From Hormiphora californensis (Eukaryota; Animalia; Ctenophora): a stretch of DNA of 64,000 bases. The notes beneath the pieces were generated by a model. The model saw only the letters and a program-made list of their open reading frames with translations, was not told the DNA's origin and made no database searches. The stretch spans positions 3,224,001-3,288,000 of the forward strand of contig CM035354.1 of the NCBI GenBank assembly GCA_020137815.1. The letters are read 5' to 3'. Both the position numbers and the translations under genes were made by a program. Positions 4,115 through 60,885 of this stretch are shown here, piece after piece (within the stretch, counting starts at the first letter, position 1; every line of letters starts with the position of its first letter).

Positions 4115-4715
4115 ATAAATAGGTGTAGACACTTAACAATGATAAAAACTGTAATAAATTAAATATAAAATGAGTCTATTGCCCCACTTGATATAGCTGC
4201 TCGTCCCTGTTGCCCTCGCCCCTCAATCTACCCCGATGCCCCCTGATGGAAACAGTTATTGATCGCACCATGGCGAAAGATAGCCTGAGTCGAAGATAAC
4301 GGATGCATTGGTCGTAGGTGTATCCCGTTTTCTTAGCTTTCTTATCGGCTAGCTGTTTCAGTCACTGAAATTCAGTGTCTTTTTGAATTCCCGACCGAGA
4401 CCCCCCGTCGTGGACATTACCAGAGGTGTAAATGAAGATTTTTCCACTTCAATGACCCGATGAAGGTAGCCAGTCTTTTTCTCCCTCTCATGTTTTTCAT
4501 ACACTTTAGAGATTGCCTGGTTAGAGTTGGATGCCACCCTAGGATTAAATACCCTCACATCAAAATAGGTGTTATCCATGCTAGACCAGAAATCACGTGT
4601 ACTGATATCTAGGCGAGCTCCATCCGCCGTAATAGTTCCCTCTGGGAGACTCATTCCTCGTACATTTAGCAGATGGGGTTCAACTTTCGTGTCATGACAC
4701 ACATTACTGAACTCA
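4115..4715 (-). mobile_element. 5'-truncated CRE-clade-like non-LTR retrotransposon fragment (C-terminal restriction-like endonuclease domain)
   Basis: VCHD..VEPHL...ARLDISTRDFW...YFDVRVFNP...YEKHEREKK.GY..RVIEVEKSSFTPLVMSTTGGLG continuing, after a 14-nt insertion, to LRLRLSFAMVRSITVSIRGHR and a stop at 4176, then an AT-rich tail. This is the typical PD-(D/E)xK REL domain of CRE-type elements. Confidence 0.82.
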
Positions 4716-5096
4716 ATTTCTAAAATCTCAAAACTTCAACTTTTTAAGTTTTTCAAATTCAAATTGAATGCAATTTTGCGCGCGCGCGATTGGCACGCGC
4801 AAAACTCGAGCCGCGCTTCGTCTTTCCAGTTTTGAATTGGCCATTCAACGTCCGATCAAATTGAAACACACAAGTTTATCAAAAGTATAAGTTACAAAAT
4901 TATTCATCACCAAATAACAATAATATCAAACATGTTCTAGTTATACTCTCACTCTCTCTCATTCATTCAGATACATAACTCGTGACGGAAAACTGGGGCG
5001 ATTAGACACATTTTGTTTTCCCATAATTTTCTCTTTCTCTTGGTGATGCTCTCAACTTGAAAACTAATCAAGACGTGTTCTCTCAATATATCTAAC

Positions 5097-17239: not shown

Positions 17240-18652
17240 TTATGGCCGGGAGGCGGGATCCGAGAAAAACTCGGGTTTAAAAAAATTTGGCAGGTTTGAA
17301 AATTTTTGGCGTGCAGCTCAGTTTTTTTAGCGTGTGCATAGCAGCGGGCGCGATTATAATCTGGGTGTCTTGCAGCCTGTTTGGTGCGCGCTACCAAAAG
17401 AGTATACTTAGACCGACTTTTTTCAAACGGCTATAGCCATGGAACCACATGGCCGATTTGAGTAAACTAAACGGTATCAGTTAGAGAATCGATAGCCCTA
17501 ACCGATAACCCCAATAGTGGAAGCTCTTACGGTAATTCCCACGCCCCGTGGAAAAGTTTTTGACCGTGGGAAAGTTTTCAAAGCGTGGGAAAAGAGAGAT
17601 ACATACAATAACTATAAAAAATAAATTGTTTTTTCTTAGTTATTGTATGTATCTCTCTTTTCCCACGCTTTGAAAACTTTCCCACGGTCGAAAACTTTCC
17701 CACGGGGCGTGGGAATTACCGTAAGAGCTTCCACTACAAACCAAACCCTAACCAGACCCTAACGGATAGCCCTAACCCGTCGCGCGCGCCAAAACTACGA
17801 ATTGTTAGCAATGAATTGGCATACGTTGCAGGCCCCGTTGCGGGGGTGCGCGCATGAGGGGGCTGCAGCGCATTCCAAAGCAATGAAAGGCACCCAGATT
17901 TTAACGTTTTCCCATAGCAGCTCAGTGCACCGGGCCGCGCGGCGCAATGACATGCAGCGCATGCATAAGAAAATCCGCGCGTTACATAAAATGCAGTGAC
18001 GTACGGCGCGGGTTCTAAATAAAAAACGAAATAAAAGAAAACGCCAACCAAACTTCTGGAACTTTTTTAAAGACTTTTCGGCAAGTTTTCTTGCACCCTT
18101 GGAATGCGCTGCAGCCCCCTCATGCGCGCACCCCCGCAACGAGGGGACTGGAGGGAATGCCGCGCGCGCGTTTGGCCTGATCCCGGCTGGGTCGAAGATA
18201 ACTTTGCGGTCGAAAAAACGGCGGTGCTTATAACTTTGGCTCCTGAAGTCCGTTTGACTTGATTCTTTCACCAGTTGTTAGATCTGACGATTATCTACCT
18301 TGCTGTTTTTGAGAGAAGTTAATTGGACTTAAGAAGGCTGAGCAATAGCCGTTGAAAGATGGGTTGTTTTCAAAAAGTGACGTCACAGATTCTTGCAGGG
18401 ACACCTTTTTTAAAATTTCATTCAAATTTTGATTTTACCGCACTCGATTTTGCGGAGTTTGGTTCATATCTCCTGTTCCTGATAAGATAGAGACCTGAAA
18501 CCGGTTGCATTTGAAAGCTGTTATCTTCCTCTTTCCAACGCTACCAAAACGATTTCTGTACCTTATCTGGAACCGGAGATATGATTGATTATGTATTCCC
18601 CCCTAGCGCGGTATTCCCTCCAGGCCCCTTATATTATATTATAAGGGGCCTG
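17240..18652. mobile_element. Composite non-coding repeat block between divergent genes
   Basis: GC/CpG-rich. Contains an about 45-bp inverted repeat (17833-17879 vs 18098-18145), degenerate CCCTAA units, a nested fold-back element and a terminal hairpin at 18621-18652. Boundaries are approximate. Confidence 0.5.
17515..17736. mobile_element. Fold-back non-autonomous element, Academ-like (TAG...CTA, 3-bp TSD CAA)
   Basis: caa|TAGTGGAAGCTCTTACGG...CCGTAAGAGCTTCCACTA|caa; about 100-bp near-perfect arms with an AT-rich spacer of about 22 nt. Confidence 0.85.
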
Positions 18653-29700: not shown

Positions 29701-32700
29701 AGAGAATTATAATCATGATAATCATGATAATGTACTAGCAACTTACCACATCACATGTTTCTTTCGCTTTTATATCTTTCCCTCACCTCTATTGCACAGG
29801 TTTTTTTCTTCAAAGAATTCTGAATTACAGGACTATCGACTATCTAATGAAATATGGAAGAATATCTAGGCGAATAACGTGATATTGGGCTGCATAGTGC
29901 ATACCGGATACCCATAATCATAATATTCGGATAATCCCTCGACACATCTTACTGAGAGGGAGAAGGAGAGGGAGAGAGACAGAGACAGAGAGAGAAGAAT
30001 GAAAGACATGGTTTCAGCGCTCTAGACAGACCTAGACAGAGAATCTGAGTGCCTAGGAAGTGTGAAGTCATGCTCTAATCACACTCTCACACAATGAACT
30101 TCGCTGCATATCCCTCAGCTTCCTTCTGTTCTATTCTTGCACTTCCTCTCTCTCTAACACACGCTATGAGGCACCAATATCATCAATGAACCCCATGCAT
30201 TGACCACGTGATGCCCATATATGGTCATGATCTCCTCCCTTCCCCCCAGGAATCCTTGCTCAAGTCGGTGTTACCGGAGTACATAGCGAAGGAGATGTTG
30301 GCGGACATCCTGGAGAATAACAATCAGCGGGAACATGCCATGAACTTACAATTCCGAAATATCTATATCCGGAAACACGACAATGTTAGGTTTGTTAACA
30401 CTGTGAGGGCCGGGAATACAGTAATTATAGTTGAGGGGAGGGGTTGCTATCACTATCAGTTGCTATGGTTACAATTTAGGTTACAACCCAGCAATTTTGT
30501 ACAAGTGGGTTAGCTACCATAACCAATGGTTATTAACCATGGCTATATCTTCAAAATAATACTCCCTGTCAATCATCTTTCTATACAACCCATCCCCCTC
30601 AGCATCCTATTTGCGGATATTGTTGGATTTACCAAGATGGCCTCTGGGTGCACTGCTCAGGAACTGGTAAAAATATTAAACACCCTGTTCGGAAGATTCG
30701 ACGATTTGGCAAAGGTAACTCATTAACAATTAAATATAGTTTATAGGATTCAAGGTATTTATCTCATCACACGACACACACTGCATACTAAAGCGTCATG
30801 TATGTGTGAGACATTTAATTAATTGCTCTCTGTCATCTCGCCGGTGTACACCTGGCGTTTTTCTATCATATTCGAGTAAACTGTGGAAATCGATTTCACA
30901 TCTCTTCTCCCCTGATATATTCGACCAGCCATGTCCGTAACAATATATCCCCACGGAGAGATACTATTTACTCTTTTGAAACGGAGAGATACTCTTTACT
31001 CTCAACCCAAAATGTCCTGCTACTTGAGAGATATTAGGTCATTCGGTAAATATCTGGACAGGTATGTTTGTGAGAGAACGGAGCTAGATAGAGCCAAGCG
31101 ACCTATTCCAGCGTCTTCCTTGGACATTTTTAGGTTGGACTAGGATGGTGGGAACCTTCGCCTGCTGGCAGTATTGCCTCACAAGCAATATGTTTCAATG
31201 CTACTCTAGCTGCCGCTTTATGCTAACTTTTAACTCAATTTTGGACCAATATGACCTACTTCCGGATCATTCGGAAAGTTTTTAACCCTATATATAGCTT
31301 ATTAAATGCCTTGAGATACTCCATAAACCTTTCTGAAATTTTTGGATAAAATTTCTAGCATGGAGAAGCGATTTTCACTAGATTTGGTAAAGCTGAATTT
31401 TAATTTTTTTTACAAATGTTGAAAAAAGCCGCCATGAGCCAGGTACCCATTGACCGATCGTAATAAAACTAACCTAGAAAATTGTATAAGCTAACATTTA
31501 ACGTTGGATTCAAGTCATTTAGACGTTTAGAACGTACAAAAACGGCCATGAAGTGCGCAAGGAGCAATTTTGGCAAAAATCCAATTTTAAGGATGAAGAT
31601 GGAATCTAAACGCTTCAATTATGGTTGCATCATCTTCAGGCTAAAAAAGTGATCTAGGAACACTGGTCAAACCGATCATCTGTCCCCAATAGAGAAAATG
31701 CCATGACATATTCAATCATCCGTAGTGCCACAGTTTTTTCTTGCATAAAGCGGCAGCAAGAGTAGCATTGAAACATATTGCTCGTGAGGCAATACTGCCA
31801 GCAGGCGAAGGTTCCCACCATCCTAGTCCAACCTAAAAATGTCCAAGGAAGACGCTGGAACAGGTCGCTTGGCTCTATCTAGCTCCGTTCTCTCACAAAC
31901 ATACCTGTCCAGATATTTACCGAATGACCTAATATTATGTGTCTCCTTCACCTCACCAATTCTCAGACCTTTCTTTGTCTTTTGAACCTTTCTATGTTGT
32001 ACAAACCTCTTAACTTTCTATTGTTATGGCACTCTAAAGTTTCCCTGGAGGGAAACTAGAGTGCAGCAGATCAAGGTAGTATTATATAGGGTAGTATAGG
32101 GTATTAGTAGGGAATCTTTCCTTCTAATAGAATCGAATACTATACCTTACCTGTCGAACCCTCACCTCAAATGCAATGTGAGCCACCCAAAAACTATGGT
32201 TACTAAAACCAAGCCGAACACACTGAACAAAGTACACTCTCGGCCCTCGGGTGACTTTCTCATACTACTTCCCCCTGCAGAAAAACAAGTGCATGCGGAT
32301 AAAGATACTAGGTGACTGTTACTACTGTGTGTGCGGAGTTCCCGATCCTGATCCGAATCACGCCATCAGCTCTGTACTAATGGCATTTGATATGATCACT
32401 TGTATCAAGTAAGTAATGAGATATTAGAGATGATTATCAGAAAATATTGTGAGTTTTGAAATGTTTTACTGTTGTTCTTTAAACTGCTTGGGAGGCCTAG
32501 TCACTACTTCCACATTTTTCCTTCTCTCTCCCTCCTCTTCTTCTACCATCCATGTACAATGCTAAACCCGATTAATGACAACTGAGTGTTGAAACTTGAA
32601 TCCTTCGGTAGTAATCCCGTTAAGTAGTTTCTATAATGATGATGGTTAAATTTGAAGGAGAGTGCGAGTGACACAAATATAACTTTGAGACATATGAGCA

Positions 32701-35700
32701 TGTCTCGGCTACGAAGAACGTGACCAATATAATATATTCATTATAAAAGTTCATTTGTTAGAAAGTTCGATTAATAATATAGCGCATATAAACACCAAGT
32801 GTGATATTACTTTACTCCAGATCAGATCTCATTTAATTCATTTAATTCATGATGTAGTAGGTACACATTATATTAACTCTGTCCACCTCTCTCTCTCCAG
32901 GGAGGTTCGGGACAATACCCGGGTTGAGGTTAACATGCGAGTTGGTATAAACTCCGGTCCGGTGCTCTGCGGAGTCCTGGGTCTTAGGAAGTGGCAGTTT
33001 GATGTTTGGAGTGATAATGTTACCATTGCAAATCATATGGAGAGCGGCGGACTAAGTGGGTATGTGATTATCATGTTTTGTTATTGGGTACTTTTTTAAT
33101 TAATTGACTAATTAGTTTTACCTACAAACGAAGCGGGTTCGTTAATACAACCTTTCGGCTTTCACGACCTTTGTGTATAACACGTTTTTATCTGCAATGC
33201 AGGAATATTTGGTTTTGAATAATATCACATAGAATATCAAATATATTTTTCATTAAAAAACCATGCGTTACTATGGTAACGATATCTTAAATATAGAACT
33301 CCCCAAGCTGCGAGCGTATGTTATTAAGTCCACGAATATGATTTAACACGTTGGTAGTTCTTGTGGTGCTAAGCAACGCGATTCAGCAGAACTTTAGTGG
33401 TAAACAACCAGTGAACAATACGGGGAGGATTTGTTTTTAAACAATTCCTTGATTTAAACAATTTCTGATTTTGTTCTTTCTCTGTGCGGCATATTCCCAA
33501 TTTCTAAATTTAGAAACTGCTGCTCATGCTCGTTTGAATACTTGTTATAAATAAACCGCAAACAATAATTATAGTCCTCACCAGAGTTCTTAAATGTTTC
33601 CCACGATTGCTCCCAGATAAGATGACATGTTACATAGGTGCTTCTTGATAGCCATAACAATTCATTGTAGTAGGGACGAATCTCTTATAAAAAGAAGTGG
33701 CTGACTCACTATTTGGTGGAAAGCAAATTCCGGTTGTAACCCACCTATTTTGACCCGCTGAACACGATCCCGTTCATAGGTAACGTCGCAAAAGTGAAGA
33801 ACATGCCCAAATCGGCCACGCCCTTTTACCTGTATTTTCAGCCTGTAGCCAAAAACATAAATCCTCTTAGAATAGGAGTAGAGACACATCTGAGGGCACT
33901 AAAGTGATCAGCGCCCTCGCATTAGTGGGGGTAGGTGCTGGAATTAAGTCTCTATCTCATCTGGTTAATTAGATAATTGGATAATTAGGTTTGCGCATAA
34001 CCGTTTTTCGGCTATATGGCTATAGCCACTTAGAAATGGTTTAGAGACTTTTCACTGGCGCCATTTTGTAGGCAATAGCCAAGTTATGGGGGGTCGACGT
34101 CGGACTTTTAAGCTCTATCTCCAACCGTTTAGCCGTTATTGGGCTTAATCGATGCTCAAAATGAGCGAAAAACGGTAAAAAGCCCGATTTTGAGCATCGA
34201 TCAAGCCCAATAACGGCTAAACGGTTGGAGATAGAGCTTAAAAGTCCGACGTCGACCCCCCATAACTTGGCTATTGCCTACAAAATGGCGCCAGTGAAAA
34301 GTCTCTAAACCATTCCTAAGTGGCTATAGCCATATAGCCGAAAAACGGTTATGCGCAAACCTAATTATCCAATTATCTAATTAACCAGATGAGATAGAGA
34401 CTTAATTCCAGCACCTACCCCCACTAATGCGAGGGCGCTGATCACTTTAGTGCCCTCAGATTTGTCTCTACTCCTATTCTAAAAGGATTTATGTTTTTGG
34501 CTACAGGCTGAAAATACAGGTAAAAGGGCGTGGCCGATTTGGGCATGTTCTTCACTTTTGCGACCTTACCTATGAACGGGATCGTGTTCAGCGGGTCAAA
34601 ATAGGTGGGTTACAACCGGAATTTGCTTTCCACCAAATAGTGAGTCAAAAAATTAAGATTCGTCCCTACTATTGCATTTTGTGGCCATACTGTTTCCCAA
34701 GAGTGATGTAACCTTTCTGAATCCATGATTTATCCGGTGAAGGAATTGTTATACAGTCGGACCCCAATTTACCGAAAAGGGTTTTGCCCGGTAAATCGGT
34801 GTGACCGGTAAATCGGGGTGAAATACAGTTAATTTCCTCCCGGGAAATCGGGGTCAGACTGTATAACAAAATAAATAACGATATAATGGCGTTGAATCAA
34901 TAAATTGACAGAAGCTTTCGGGAGCACTGTGTTTCTCGTCTTCAGCTATGACATGTTACATAAAGTTGCGAAGGGGGGGGGGGTTGCGAAAGAGTGTTAC
35001 ACTTCTTTACTAGTTACTTGAGCATATATTTGTGGGGTTAACGTTTTCTATTCATCTTAATAGGGATAATTATTTCGAATAATCATTCACAACTTTATAC
35101 TATGAGTCGTGTCATGGTGTCTTGTATTTCTAAATAAATTGGAACCACTGGCGTATGGCTCCAAATACTATCCCCAATGGTTCAAACCACACTACCAACC
35201 CTCCTATGTGTAACTATGGTAACACCTTTCCTCAGGAGGGTAACTATGGTAACCCCCTTCCTCAGGAGGGTAACTATGGTAACCCCCTTCCTCAGGAGGG
35301 TAACTATGGTAACCCCTTCCTTAGGAGGGTAATTATGGTAACCCACTTCCTCTGGAGGGTAACTATGGTAACCCCTTCCTTAGGAGGGTAACTATGGTAA
35401 CCCCCTTCCTCTGGAGGGTAACTATGGTAACCCCTTCCTTAGGAGGGTAACTATGGTAACCCCCTTCCTCTGGAGGGTAACTATGGTAACCCCTTCCTTA
35501 GGAGGGTAACTATGGTAACCCCCTTCCTCTGGAGGGTAACTATGGTAACCCCCTTCCTCTGGAGGGTAACTATGGTAACCCCTTCCTTAGGAGGGTAACT
35601 ATGGTAACCCCCTTCCTCTGGAGGGTAACTATGGTAACCCCTTCCTTAGGAGGGTAACTATGGTAACCCCCTTCCTCTGGAGGGTAACTATGGTAACCAC

Positions 35701-48512: not shown

Positions 48513-49330
48513 TAGTCAGGACCACTATTGGTGCGCGGTCGTGCCCACGGAAGGAGTGCTTGGATCATCTTGAAACCGGTTTTAAGTTCACTAATGCATA
48601 CCCAAAAGTGTCTGTAGCCATTTGGGTGATGTTCTGACAATCCAATCACGAGTTATGACCGAAAAACAGTCAAAAAAGACGTTTTAAAGTGACAAAAAGG
48701 AGGATCTGAACACAGCCCTTATATGAAGGGCTGGGGCTTTGAAACTTCTTGTGTGGACAGAGAATCGTCCAAATTTGCAGTGTCAACTTTCAGATAGTTT
48801 CTATCTTTTGTAGTTATCTAATTAGAGTCGTTTAAACATGTGAGAAGTTGCTAAAGGGGCCTATAATACTGCTTGTGAAGTGATCACTTGACGAGATTTG
48901 CCCAATTAGAGAGCGGATTAAAGCATACAAGCGGTGAGAGCAAGCAATATGAGATGGAAGTAGTACCTAATCACCCTGTTTTGCAGGGTCATAAAGATCG
49001 TCTCACATGTTTGAATGGCTCTAATTACATAACTACAAAAGATAGCAACTATCTGAAAGTTGACACAAATTTGGACGATTCTCTGTCCACACAAGAAGTT
49101 TCAAAGCCCCAGCCCTTCATATAAGGGCTGTGTTCAGATCCTCCTTTTTGTCACTTTAAAACGTCTTTTTTGACTGTTTTTCGGTCATAACTCGTGATTG
49201 GATTGTCAGAACATCACCCAAATGGCTACAGACACTTTTGGGTATGCATTAGTGAACTTAAAACCGGTTTCAAGATGATCCAAGCACTCCTTCCGTGGGC
49301 ACGACCGCGCACCAATAGTGGTCCTGACTA
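48513..49330. mobile_element. Long-TIR non-autonomous element, Academ-like (TAG...CTA, 3-bp TSD GTG)
   Basis: gtg|TAGTCAGGACCACTATTGG...CCAATAGTGGTCCTGACTA|gtg; arms of about 330 bp with a spacer of about 150 bp; inserted in a GC-richer intergenic repeat-like block (about 47900-49500). Confidence 0.9.
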
Positions 49331-55744: not shown

Positions 55745-57614
55745 TTACATTTCAGCCTCACTAACACTGCTACTTTCACTTTCACTATCGTCCTCCTGGA
55801 GAAACAATGTCGTGGAATTCTCCAGCCCGATATCCTTACAGCTCAACAGAGCATCAGGGGCATCATACGCTGGCAAGATCCGTTTGGGGAAATTAGTAAT
55901 CAGTGTAAAAAAGTTGGGCGCATCCTCACATGTAAATGCAAACTCGTATAGTTCCTTGATACGGACCTCTGGGAGGAATGCACGTGCAACACGGGATCCA
56001 TTAGGTAGCCTGAACAAGAGGGAGATGGTGTGATCCTTAGTTGGTTCCTCCAATTTATCTCTCAACTCCACCCTTAACTCCTCCCGCTGCTTCAACTTGT
56101 TTTCCTTTTCCTCCTGTTTCCTGTCCACCTCCTCCTGTGCTAACCTCACTGCCTCCTCCTCGGCTTTCCGTTGCTTTTCCCGCTCCTGATCTCGCAGCAG
56201 GGACTCATTGAAGGCGGCGTTTTGTTCCTGCATGAGGAGTTGGGAGGTGGAACTCTCACTCACCCTGTTCCTGTTTCGTTGTCGTTGAAGGTGAGGTTCG
56301 TTTTCTAGAATGGCCGTTGTAAGCCGTGATATGACTGCGTCGACAGTTGCCGAGCCCTGGTTCTTGTAGATCAACCTCATTTGGCCCTCCTTGAAGCAGA
56401 GGAGACCGATGAAAGGTGCCCGGGCATTGGTTAGACTCTCTGCCACTCTGCTGCCCTCTCCCGTGCTGGTATCACAACTCCAGAACAGCAGATTGTCCTC
56501 GACAACGCTCTTGAAGAGAGGTGAACAGATGACGTTTTGAGCAAACCTCACGGATGTCTCTTTCTTTTCAGAGTGCAGATATACTAGGAGGAATCGGAGG
56601 TGGCGTTGGGCATGACTCATTGCTTCCTTTAGTGTCCCATGATAAAACCTCGGATGAGTGGAGCCATAACGACGAGTGAACTCCTCGATATACATCTCCA
56701 CTTCTCTACCCGCTTCCCTCTGTGTGGGTACCCCGGACGTGAAAAAGAACGAGTATGCAAAGCTCAGGACGGAGAAAATTGTCTTGAAAATAAACCGAAG
56801 GGGTGCGTACACCGCCCAAATACCACTAAAAAGGATGGTCGAGAGTGCACCGTTGCCATGGTTTCTGTTTATGACGGGTCCTGTTGAAGGGGTAAACCGA
56901 GGACCAATGAAATTAGGATTGTCCTCGCCTAACAGGGGTCCCGCCGGGGATGGAGGGGGTACAAGTCGCTGTCGGACATTATTCAGTTCTGATCGTACGA
57001 TAGGCACCGGTCGCTGGATAACTGGCGTCGCTGGAGTTGGTACAAATGTAGGCGAGGGAGGGTTTATTGGTGGGTTGAATGCCAATTGTACAGCTTGTTC
57101 CAAATCCCAGTTTGCTTCATCTAACAGTTTCATGCATTCTGCTAGATCTGATTTACCTGTATGGAAATTTGAAACATGTCAAGCTATAAGGTCTGAGGAA
57201 CACAAATCAGACTCATCATGATTTTAATATCTGAATTTACACAATTTACATAATCAAATGCTACCCTTGGGTATGATATCCCCTCTTTCTTCTATCGTCC
57301 TGCGCTGTCTCTCTCTCTCTCTCATGTTGTCTCGCACGCTACGTTTAATTCGGGATGGGGCGAGTGAGCGATAGAGAACTCCCTCTCTCCTACCCCCTTC
57401 CCAAAAAGAGAGGGGACACCGTACCCAAATGCTACCCTCCTCTTTCATAATCGAAAGTTATGTACACACCTGTAACTTCCTGGAAGTGACTGAGAATCTC
57501 ATCCTCCTGACTGTTTTGTTGTGATGCTGGAACTGCGATCCCTTCCGCCTCCGCCGGAGAACCTGCCTGGGGTGATTCTGGCTGTGGGGAGTCACTTACA
57601 TCGCCTTCGCTCAT
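55745..57614 (-). CDS. FAF2: FAF2/UBXD8 (UBA, membrane hairpin, UAS, coiled coil, UBX), 2 exons
   Basis: Exon 1 57614-57470 (EDEILSHFQEVTG); exon 2 57156-55745 with LDEANWDLEQAV (UBA-like), a hydrophobic hairpin, HPRFYHGTLKEA...RFLLVYLHS (UAS), EQNAAFNESLLRDQERE, and FRLPNGSRVARAF...TNFPKR (UBX). Confidence 0.92.
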
Positions 57615-57859
57615 CCCTTGGTATTTATTAGGGTTAGAATAATAATGAGCAGTCTTACGTGACATCATTTAATTACATTGAAAGTGTCCAGATCACATAT
57701 CTCAAAACACGGCGAGAAAGGTAGCATTACAAAAACATATAATTTGTGCTTGGGCGATTAAACACAAATCTCCCTAATTTAAACGGTCCGGAAACCCAGG
57801 GACTTGCTAGGTCGAAGGCCCAGCGCGGTCCCTCATCCCAGTTTAAACCTTGGGAATTT

Positions 57860-58860
57860 CTTGTACAAACGATGTTACTCTTTTATCACTTGTCCCTTCC
57901 TGCTCTTCGTCTCTACCGCCCTGTCAGACCTCCTCCTCATACTCCTCGTTCCAGCTCTCTGATACCCTCTGTTCCAGGCTACCGTCCCTTTGATTCAGGT
58001 CACCGCCTCCACTTCTTCTCGACTGCTGACTCCAACCCTTTCCACCCCTTCCCTCTCTACCGCTCTGTCAGACCTCCTCGTATTCCTCGTTCCAGCTCTC
58101 CTCTGATACCCTCTGTTCCAGGCTACCGTCCCTCTGATCCAGGTCATCGCCTCTTCTGCTCACTGGGTGCTCCCCCTCTCCTTCCTCACCTCCATCTCTG
58201 GCCCTCCTTCACCGTTTCCAGCCCTCACCGCCCTTTTTCCTGTCCGTGGTTTCCATCTACTTCCTCTCTCTGAGTTGCATCTCTCCGTCAGTCCCCTGTC
58301 CCCGACAGCCAGGCTCCACCGACACTCCGCTTCCTTCTCGTCGTCTCCACCGCTGGTCTGGACTCCTCCATCTCCCTCCTCGTTCCAGCCCCCCCCCTTT
58401 TTTGATCCGGATCATCGTCTCGCCTCTTGCTCTTCTGGTACTCTCACCTTTTCCATTCCTCACCTCTGGCCCTCCTTCATCTCACCCTTTTCTCCAGACC
58501 TCGCTGCCCTTTCCCAGGAACCCATCCCTAGCTGCTCCCAGTGCTCTTCGTCAGCCTCAGTCCTCCTTTACCTCCGGTCCCCCGCCTCCCGCACGTTGTC
58601 TTACTACCTCTATTCCCTTCTTCCTTTCCCCCTGTTTAAGTGCTCCCTCTCCACCTCACTGCTGTTCACCTCTCTCTTAGCATCGTGTTTCTCTCTCTCA
58701 CCCTTCCAACCGGTCATTCCCACTCCCTTAACCACACTGTTCTCTTCTCCACTTACCACCAACTCTATCACTATGCACCCCCCCCCCCATACACAGATAC
58801 CTTGATCCCTTCTCCCTCCCCCATCTCCCTCCCCACTTCTCCAGATTTCCTCTTTTTTTT
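57860..58860 (+). repeat. 1-kb pyrimidine-skewed element with about 110-bp internal direct repeats
   Basis: 57911-58020 and 58054-58160 are close copies, with a degenerate third near 58370-58480; strong C/T strand bias; T-rich end. Confidence 0.55.
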
Positions 58861-59213
58861 AACTATATTTATTTTTTGAGTGTGTTTTTAAATTATTAAT
58901 TAAATTATTATTGTATTTTCTTGGGTCGGGTAACACCGACCTGAATCATTTTTAAAACTTGTCTAAAACTTGTCTAAAACTTGTCTAAAACTTGTTGAAT
59001 TTGGACAATCACACCCCAAGGCCCAATTTTAAGATAATTTTCAGCTTTTAACACGATACAGGCGGCAGGCGCACCTAACGAAGGTAGCAAACGTCAACAA
59101 TTTTCACCGTTCTTCTCAAAGAAATTTTTTTTTTTCTGAAAATTCACTAACCCCAACACCGATTGGCATCACTTTCCGACAGCCGAAGAGAAGCTGCCGA
59201 AGAGAGAAAGGGG

Positions 59214-59225
<12 letters not shown>

Positions 59226-59257
<32 letters not shown>

Positions 59258-60506
59258 TTTTTTTTTTTTTTTTTATTAAATCTAAAAATGTATACATTGC
59301 ATACATATACGCCCCTTTTTGTGGGCAATTTGGATAGTCCTTTCGATTTAAAATTCAATGGTTAGAGTTCACTTAGCCACATTTAATGACCCCCTTACTA
59401 ATCCAATAACGTCCATTCGGATTATCTCGTTTTAGTTCTTTCAGAGTATCAACAAGAGATTTCCGCTCTCGCTGTTCGTCTGGTGATAGGTCGGGAGAGA
59501 GAAAAACGGATGAAAACTTCTCTGAACTCTGCAGCTGCTTTGCTTTCCGAAGAAGCTGCAGCAAGGATTCCCTTCTTTCAAGGGTGACGATAACAGGTCT
59601 CGCTCGGTCATCAGTCCTTAGGCCAACCCGCTTTGTGGAGGTTACGACAGGTTTCTCATTTAGCTCAGCAAAGATATCCTGAACTTCATGATCAGTAGCC
59701 CTGGCAGTGGTTTCTGGGAGCCCAAATATAACCAAATTCAGCTTTCTATCCGGAGTTGTTCTTTCAGTTGGTGGAGAGGAAACTGTCGCCTTCTTCCATG
59801 CTTCCTTCAGGCGAGATGGAGCAATAGCAGCTGAACAATTCTGTACAAGGACCTTGGAGTAGTCATGCAACTGCTTTTGGACAGACTCCGACATCGAGTT
59901 GTTTTCACCTTTTTGTACTTCAATCAAACTATTTTGTGCTTCTATCAGCTTCCCTTGCAATGCAATCCTTGCTACCCGATGCTTGTCGACTTCTTCTTTG
60001 AACGTGCTAAGTTCTTTCTGTACCTCCTCCAGCTTCCTATTACAGTCCTCCAGTTGCAGGCGTTCTTTCGTTCTAGCACTTTCATAGTTCTTCATCTTAG
60101 TTTCACACAATCGTTTCTCATTCCCTATTTCCCTCCCTAACTGGAGAATGTGACGACAGAGTTTCTTAGTGATAGCCTGGAGTCTTTCTGCATTGTACTC
60201 CTTCAACTTGTAATCTAGTGGTAGTGCTTCCTCAATATATTGACGCTCATTATCCTCCGTATCCTTTTCCAAGATCTCTTTTAGTAAATCCTCTATCGCT
60301 TCTCGCTCGCTTTGACGATTCAGAGTTCCTTTCTTTACCAACATTACATCACTCATTGCATTAAACAGTGTACTTCTCATCGTACTACCCAAACATTCTC
60401 CTATACTTGAAGATTTCTTGGGCTTCTCCATCGTCGTCATAGCTTGGGACTGCCCCTACGGGCGGTTCCGCCATCCTAGGGACATATCTCAAATTAATTT
60501 GTTTGT
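59226..60506 (-). mobile_element. ORF1-only retroposon or retrocopy with a 5' spliced-leader relic, A19+(TAA)n tail and TSD
   Basis: Minus strand: TAATAATAATA | AC AAACAAATTAATTTGAG - 47-nt leader - intact ORF - about 100-nt 3' UTR - A19 - (TAA)n | TAATAATAATA. Confidence 0.85.
59373..60440 (-). CDS. LINE ORF1p-like protein (coiled coil plus RRM/CTD), 355 aa, intact
   Basis: Long coiled coil followed by RKLNLVIFGLPE...RVG...RPVIVTL...LLRKAKQL...VFLSPDLSPDEQRERKSL, the motif series of CR1/L2/L1-type ORF1 proteins. No ORF2 follows. Confidence 0.8.
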   Translation of the reverse strand: MTTMEKPKKSSSIGECLGSTMRSTLFNAMSDVMLVKKGTLNRQSEREAIEDLLKEILEKDTEDNERQYIEEALPLDYKLKEYNAERLQAITKKLCRHILQLGREIGNEKRLCETKMKNYESARTKERLQLEDCNRKLEEVQKELSTFKEEVDKHRVARIALQGKLIEAQNSLIEVQKGENNSMSESVQKQLHDYSKVLVQNCSAAIAPSRLKEAWKKATVSSPPTERTTPDRKLNLVIFGLPETTARATDHEVQDIFAELNEKPVVTSTKRVGLRTDDRARPVIVTLERRESLLQLLRKAKQLQSSEKFSSVFLSPDLSPDEQRERKSLVDTLKELKRDNPNGRYWISKGVIKCG

Positions 60507-60592
60507 TATTATTATTAACCGTATGAAGAGTTAATCGCGATGAGTCTCATTCACATTGGGTTCGATCATTTGCCCCCGGTGTTGGGGTTAGT

Positions 60593-60885
60593 AATAAATA
60601 AATAAATCTTAAAATCACTCACTCAAATAAACAATAAATATTACAAATAAAAAGTCAGTCAGTAAAATCACACATTGCGATGGGAGGTGGAGTCGTGAAC
60701 TTTTTCCTCGTGCCCCTCAGTGAGACCAAGGTACTTCTGAGGAGACAGAACCGTATCCGCGTTCTCAAGAAATTAATCACCTCAGCGTATTTGTCCTTGT
60801 GTTTAGTTGAGATGCGTGAGGCTAACTTTTTGATTAGTCGTCCAGCCTCTGGTCCGGAACCTCCGGAGGTAGCCATCACAATCTC
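60593..60885 (-). mobile_element. Second, divergent 5'-truncated CRE-like retrotransposon 3' end
   Basis: VMATSGGSGPEAGRLIKKLASRIS.K....YAEVINFLRTRIRFCLLRSTLVSLRGTR, stop at 60655, then a (TTTA)n tail; homologous to the end of the 4115-4715 fragment. Confidence 0.8.

Follow-up and report, generated by a model that had tools for sequence, protein, structure and literature searches.

A ctenophore ORF1-only retroposon family headed by the host spliced leader

A minus-strand insert in Hormiphora californensis raises the question of how a retroposon that encodes a single ORF1-like protein, and that begins with what looks like the end of the host spliced leader (SL), obtains and renews its RNA. The window we analyzed is a 64,000-nt stretch of this ctenophore's genome, in which the insert occupies ~1.3 kb and holds one gene. 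A sequence-only reading had proposed that the insert is a reverse-transcribed, SL trans-spliced RNA mobilized in trans by a LINE, and that it would need no internal promoter because the SL relic supplies every new copy with a splice acceptor. The layout described there (17-mer, leader, intronless ORF, A19 and (TAA)n) was found in place, and inspection of the ORFs confirmed that the insert codes for neither an RT nor an endonuclease. The features of the insert and its target, in the order of the minus strand, are listed here.

60518-60592, no strand assigned: MITE half receiving the insertion, with its 16-nt inverted end at 60577-60592
60517-60507, minus: TAATAATAATA, TAA tract at the 5' junction (the 'TSD' of the sequence-only reading), which likely arrived with the insertion
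60506-60505, minus: non-SL dinucleotide AC, absent from that reading and common to copies in other flanks
60504-60488, minus: 17-nt relic of the SL 3' end, identical to the published SL
60487-60441, minus: 47-nt leader with two upstream ATGs and a YAG at leader nt 12
60467-60450, minus: GCCC-N4-GGGC leader motif, also in the distant relatives L001 and L002
60440-59373, minus: intronless gene for a 355-aa protein, predicted to be type II ORF1-like (variable N-terminus, long helix/coiled coil, RRM, CTD)
59372-59275, minus: 98-nt 3' UTR
59328-59311, minus: 18-nt 3' UTR motif with a GCCC/GGGC stem-loop, identical in L002
about 59306-59289, minus: predicted AU-rich hairpin, 3' of the 18-nt motif
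59274-59256, minus: A19, first part of the tail
59255-59215, minus: (TAA)13TA, second part of the tail; (TAA)n is common to L002
59146-59214, no strand assigned: other MITE half, with its 16-nt inverted end at 59146-59161

The 17-mer occurs once in the 64 kb, and the same is true of its last 10 nt. Both ATGs of the leader (60441-60487, minus strand) are out of frame with the main ORF; the second is in frame in P0002 and fused through a deletion in P0009. An Rfam search returned nothing close to a gathering score.

The 17-mer had been taken for a ctenophore SL relic in the sequence-only reading, and the comparison with the host confirms this, as it matches the last 17 nt of the published H. californensis SL at 17/17 positions; the possibility that the species' SL ends differently was checked and did not hold. 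The SL sequence is printed in PMC8527503, where 718 genomic SL copies are counted in this species, and no other paper in the literature covered contains the 17-mer string. Use of the SL is seen in the public sequencing run X1, which is labeled 'DNA?' and behaves as RNA because it skips the intron of the neighboring gene (57154-57468) and has zero depth over the repeats at 57669-58837 (vs 96-472 in the DNA run X2). In X1 the neighboring gene carries the last 21-22 nt of the SL, joined at 57618/57619; the window sequence has an AAG acceptor at this point. The organism thus uses this SL. The product of this gene is, from our reading of its sequence, presumably UBX/FAF2-like. In X1 the gene is trans-spliced at two positions 3 nt apart (57617-57619, minus strand), and the window allele offers a single AG there. 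Two proteins of the P0062 family, P0208 and P0073, have a common 16-residue upstream peptide preceded by different residues; the start of this peptide resembles the start of the SL open frame, and a second SL type may head this family. Another SL-headed transcript, the third, is record 3 of X1 (depth 7.5); its leader starts with a few similar letters, and it possibly comes from a distant subfamily related to P0011.

For the protein, a first search with the ORF gave 11 clusters at 42-99% identity, and 3878 proteins were retrieved with a profile at an E-value limit of 0.001; the named relatives come from Pleurobrachia bachei. One relative, P0015, lies on another contig of 1406 nt and is identical to the window's protein, and among close subfamilies the N-terminal 110 aa are 38-56% and the C-terminal 130 aa 75-91% identical. 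Pfam gave no meaningful match for the ORF or for 116 aligned relatives, a PDB sequence search with the profile gave no match, and the ESM Atlas gave unnamed clusters plus leads below 0.9 to baculovirus FP families and nothing further. The ORF1 assignment rests on predicted structure. A model from the single sequence was poor (pLDDT 53.5) and was set aside, and the AlphaFold2 model built from 116 sequences (pLDDT 82) shows a long helix (84-201), an RRM and a small C-terminal domain. With this model, the Foldseek ranks 1-11 are all human L1 ORF1p (best E 2.2e-6), and VIA-align against human L1 ORF1p gives Z 11.0 with an rmsd of 2.5 over 87 residues, vs 9.1 for the best unrelated RRM. These matches are in line with the LINE-ORF1-like ORF of the sequence-only reading, and the protein is predicted to be a type II ORF1 with a coiled coil, an RRM and a CTD.

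Evidence on copies was drawn from assembled contigs of the public runs and from metagenome loci. The element is deeper than the neighboring gene in all three DNA runs (200-567 vs 35 in X2, thousands vs 256-444 in X6, and 6-11 vs 0 in X3), where summed contig depth is no copy number and filters can hide contigs. Record 5 of X2 is identical to the window up to 60506 and continues into a different flank, record 16 of X6 is identical as well and also ends at 60506, and two X6 contigs depart at 60484 and 60479 into other flanks, representing 5'-truncated copies; altogether three different flanks were seen at element 5' ends. A second subfamily, with 6 differences over 60450-60504, includes additional SL sequence (11 nt in X2, 10 nt in X3), so that the 5' ends of the copies vary from no SL to 17 nt or to 28 or more nt. 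Four further X6 records were derived arithmetically and reproduce all 11 depth bins to within 0.1; one of them shares just the last 5 SL letters (junction 60492) and could carry the possible second SL type mentioned above. The multi-copy family with distinct flanks and variable SL lengths, which the sequence-only reading had led us to expect, is thus borne out by depth and junctions in X2, X6 and X3 and by the metagenome locus L002, and an origin from SL-bearing RNA is supported too. No contig in X1, X2 or X6 spans 60507-60515, which fits an insertion polymorphism or a filter gap.

The RNA-type run X1 holds contigs of the element over 59345-60278 (4 differences) and 60312-60504 (0 differences), and the family is therefore transcribed. 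At the 5' end, RNA contigs of X1 end at or slightly past the 17-mer, and the window-type one starts exactly at 60504 without a predecessor; among contigs, no RNA record places a longer SL on a copy whose relic is known to be shorter, which weighs against the trans-splicing cycles discussed below. In X8, which is declared as RNA, no contig was found on the 176-nt junction stretch, which is no proof of absence. The longest family-member contig measures 2548 among 58 with a length and 3122 among 69 of 71 listed, sizes that weakly fit ORF1-only elements, most contigs being short. A search for longer family proteins found only P0061, a P. bachei gene-model fusion to PSF3. We conclude that the window insert is a recent copy of a transcribed multi-copy element.

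A first metagenome scan found no relatives among 593 candidates, and 51 viral contigs held neither relatives nor SL matches. A second metagenome scan gave 14 loci with relatives of the ORF, two of which, L001 and L002, contain the 17-mer. L001, which may be DNA or RNA, begins inside the SL (26/26 nt), continues into a 318-aa ORF and ends at the stop codon. L002 consists of 461 nt of flank, 38/38 nt of SL, a leader, a 318-aa ORF, a 3' UTR, (TAA)n and flank, and since it is flanked on both sides it is a genomic copy; its tail is without an A-run and no TAA tract stands at its 5' end. The proteins are 39% (L001) and 36% (L002) identical to that of the window and 32% identical to each other. All three leaders share the GCCC-N4-GGGC motif. 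L002 and the window also agree in the 18-nt 3' motif, which is identical in the two, in having a second predicted hairpin and in the (TAA)n tail; tail and flank follow within about 120-160 nt of the stop codon in both. The nucleotides after the SL differ across the three (ATA, CAG or TTT), and a YAG follows the SL's GAG at 3, 6 or 12 nt (12 in the window). In a quick tree, the window, L001 and L002 fall in one clade of 13 of the 61 rows (SH-aLRT 88), which is nested in a 20-row clade (SH-aLRT 97); L003, from the wider clade, is a sequence without a 5' end and without the 3' motif, which speaks against the generality of this layout. The distant relatives L009 and L012 (29-30% identity) precede an endonuclease-RT (APE-RT) ORF2 and have long branches in the same tree. 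The tails of these two LINEs are unlike that of the element, and among the loci covered no partner LINE with the same tail was found.

The possibility that the insert is a one-off processed pseudogene, or that its likeness to the SL is due to chance, has the single copy in the 64-kb window on its side and nothing else. It was checked and did not hold, as the depth is that of a multi-copy element, several flanks occur, and two distant relatives are headed by the SL; we consider this explanation next to impossible. A diversified SL-headed ORF1-only retroposon family in ctenophores is real in our view and, as far as we searched, was previously unlabeled. The P. bachei model P0009 (1/316 proteins with an SL-reading motif) reads through 12 codons of SL into the window's leader, with about 30 codons upstream; it may represent either a genomic copy whose SL is almost complete or an error of splicing in the gene model. 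The ORF1-like frames of L004-L008, which also speak against generality, have no SL, and no ORF2 was seen within 120-500 nt downstream; L004 and L008 have downstream motifs in common, and these loci are possibly other ORF1-only families from other animals. Matches of the 18-nt tail motif in prokaryote genomes (26, with about 17 expected by our estimate) are close to chance and were disregarded, and its 3-mismatch matches at 34058 and 34274 represent both arms of a single long inverted repeat, which was not linked to the element.

The 11-nt repeat at the two ends had been read as a target-site duplication, which is doubtful, because contigs of the empty target lack the 11-mer and retain only TA. 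The empty MITE is 146 nt long with 16-nt inverted ends, and its contigs in X1, X2 and X6 join 60516 directly to 59214; they may stem from other MITE copies instead of this locus. The MITE is very high-copy (depth >100 times that of the neighboring gene in X2 and X6) and is present in X1 too. From the sequence comparison, the true target duplication is probably TA only, and (TAA)n is to be read as the element's own tail, since L002 has the same tail without the A-run. Because of this, the insertion itself most likely introduced the TAA tract at the 5' junction, which would derive either from upstream sequence that a master copy passed on or from a template switch to a tail; a TAA expansion in this one MITE copy that predates the insertion is possible. 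We rejected the tract as the tail of an upstream RLE-type fragment, as a MITE half separates the two. Two 5'-truncated fragments of this kind lie at 60593-60881 and at about 4150-4735 (both minus strand), and we take their frames to resemble the C-terminal, restriction-like endonuclease end of CRE/R2-type retrotransposons; they have no Pfam match, and the Atlas places them at 0.96 with unnamed eukaryotic clusters. The fragment at 60593-60881 adjoins the MITE and makes the locus a nest of three elements. Elsewhere in the window, long near-perfect palindromes or inverted repeats (33702-34647, 17515-17736, 48513-49330 and 31031-31935; up to 947 nt, 97%) are probably foldback or MITE-type elements.

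How the RNA of such an element arises can be explained in several ways. We favor, with moderate confidence, a mixed model, in which a multi-copy, non-autonomous retroposon is recurrently SL trans-spliced and mobilized by a LINE, the source of transcription being left unspecified. Either read-through or a promoter within the conserved leader motif would give rise to the RNA. Trans-splicing would then add the SL, with the terminal AG of a long relic in an earlier copy as the probable acceptor. The ORF2 of a LINE, presumably of APE type, would then copy this RNA in trans by target-primed reverse transcription, guided by the 3' stem-loop and the (TAA)n tail, and reverse transcription would halt at variable points within the SL. 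Repeated re-acquisition of the SL has good support, because the SL matches that of the host over 17-38 nt while the bases that follow have diverged completely. If the element spreads through RNA only, new masters begin with the relic, and its terminal AG is therefore the natural acceptor; in the 38 nt of SL in L002 this is the only AG.

A strictly promoterless cycle, which extends the sequence-only reading to an old ctenophore superfamily of ORF1-only retroposons, would use the relic as the acceptor, re-cap any read-through with a fresh SL at the same nucleotide and leave mobilization to a LINE via the stem-loop, and this we hold as a tentative possibility. The relic ends in GAG with a YAG downstream, and GAG is the rarest acceptor triplet, which speaks against a clean cycle of this kind, as does the conserved leader motif, which could be a promoter element. 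AC plus the 17-mer recurs in different flanks, and for this reason the template of the window's sub-lineage was probably unspliced; the inherited AC counts against a simple re-splicing cycle because re-splicing would remove it. Since this sub-lineage was probably copied from unspliced RNA, the spliced and unspliced routes likely both operate, which the mixed model accommodates.

The same leader motif bears on an explanation in which an internal promoter lies in the leader, the SL is inherited as a selected 5' part, and trans-splicing happened once or rarely. The conservation of GCCC-N4-GGGC in all three leaders, the fixed start at AC plus the 17-mer in several copies, and the YAG triplets behind the SL, which remain untrimmed though re-splicing might trim them, would fit it. 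In the window and in L002, the first YAG is closely followed by an ATGGCG that may resemble a YY1 site, and this would count for it as well. In dinoflagellates, the SL might itself promote transcription (suggested in PMC12014239). However, families that are 32-39% identical match the host SL perfectly over 26-38 nt, the match breaks off sharply at the last AG of the SL, and a never-renewed SL would be eroded by 5' truncation; moreover, about 30% of Hydra TE long reads carry an SL according to PMC12220107. We judge an internal promoter of this sort unlikely.

Alternatively, trans-spliced mRNA could stem from a few master loci, either a domesticated ORF1 gene family or old masters, each equipped with a promoter and an outron, and every SL-headed copy would be a dead-end retrocopy. 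SL heads and variable truncation fit this equally, and the ORF is apparently under constraint. Such masters might have appeared as contigs that leave the leader at AG into non-SL sequence, but none does so in X6 or X2, and the depth of X6, X2 and X1 at 60451-60510 is fully explained without one; this is a weak negative, as graph simplification can prune such a contig. The 3' stem-loop is conserved and, together with (TAA)n, has the look of a signal for retroposition, the subfamilies are many, and the AC-type copies imply that an SL-headed copy served as template, so that dead-end retrocopies seem to us quite unlikely.

We compared the element with known systems for which it might be mistaken. 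HAL1 elements have an L1-style poly(A) tail with a long TSD and an internal promoter in the 5' UTR. The element described here has a (TAA)n tail, L002 is without an A-run, and the empty target keeps TA. HAL1 (half-L1) of mammals is described in PMC5753468 as a non-autonomous non-LTR element with an L1-type ORF1p only, and the present element is alike in coding for ORF1p without ORF2, in being dispersed in multiple copies (from depth, flanks, L002 and P0061 beside PSF3) and in being presumably moved in trans. It differs in its ctenophore host, in a 5' end made of the host SL, in a tail of stem-loop plus (TAA)n and in having no long TSD. HAL1 is derived from L1; the present element may or may not be, as the type II ORF1 predicted here is not L1-specific and occurs in the L1, CR1, L2 and R1 clades according to PMC4120745. 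For the relict-SL retrogenes of dinoflagellates, PMC12014239 proposes a cycle of retroposition, re-expression and new trans-splicing. The likeness lies in genomic copies tagged by a 5' SL relic (17 nt in the window, 38 nt in L002 and at least 28 nt in the second subfamily of X2). In dinoflagellates, however, host genes are concerned and relics can be stacked, whereas the present family is a selfish ORF1 family, and each of its three sequenced 5' ends (window, L001 and L002) bears one relic without any stacking; re-splicing in L002 would leave no stack, because its SL has no AG but the last. A parent that is an ordinary host gene does not fit the predicted LINE ORF1p-type product, the conserved 3' stem-loop and (TAA)n.

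Transposable elements of other animals also use host SL trans-splicing, as reported for TE RNAs in Hydra (PMC12220107) and suggested for Schistosoma mansoni, where six TE-like genes have an internal SL (PMC5832876); the accessible portions of these two reports describe no family with SL-headed genomic copies across deeply diverged subfamilies and no ORF1-only element. The trypanosome L1Tc, as summarized in PMC1874656, has an internal promoter and unspliced RNA. PMC7986045 and PMC9911081 contributed nothing further. In the literature covered (titles and the opening parts of abstracts of openly accessible papers), we found neither an SL-headed ORF1-only element nor this ctenophore family. NeSL, SLACS and CRE are non-LTR elements with an RT and an endonuclease of their own, and their insertion targets are SL RNA genes. 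The insert is like them a non-LTR element adjoining SL sequence, but it has no RT, its SL end is followed by a leader without a GT donor, and its target is a MITE.

Non-LTR elements lose their 5' ends on copying, so that keeping a promoter is a standing problem, to which internal promoters and self-cleaving ribozymes are known solutions. A host SL serving as the element's 5' end would, if true, be a further, host-supplied answer to promoter loss, and if the promoterless cycle is true, trans-splicing by the host takes the place of the 5' promoter, which LINEs without exception must otherwise preserve. The family is a natural test of whether an SL can act as its own acceptor, and it shows ORF1-only elements in an early-branching animal group. 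For the annotation of these genomes, copies are at risk of being annotated as SL genes or merged with neighboring sequence in a gene model, as in P0009 and P0061, and some of the several hundred SL copies reported from ctenophore genomes may be accounted for by them.
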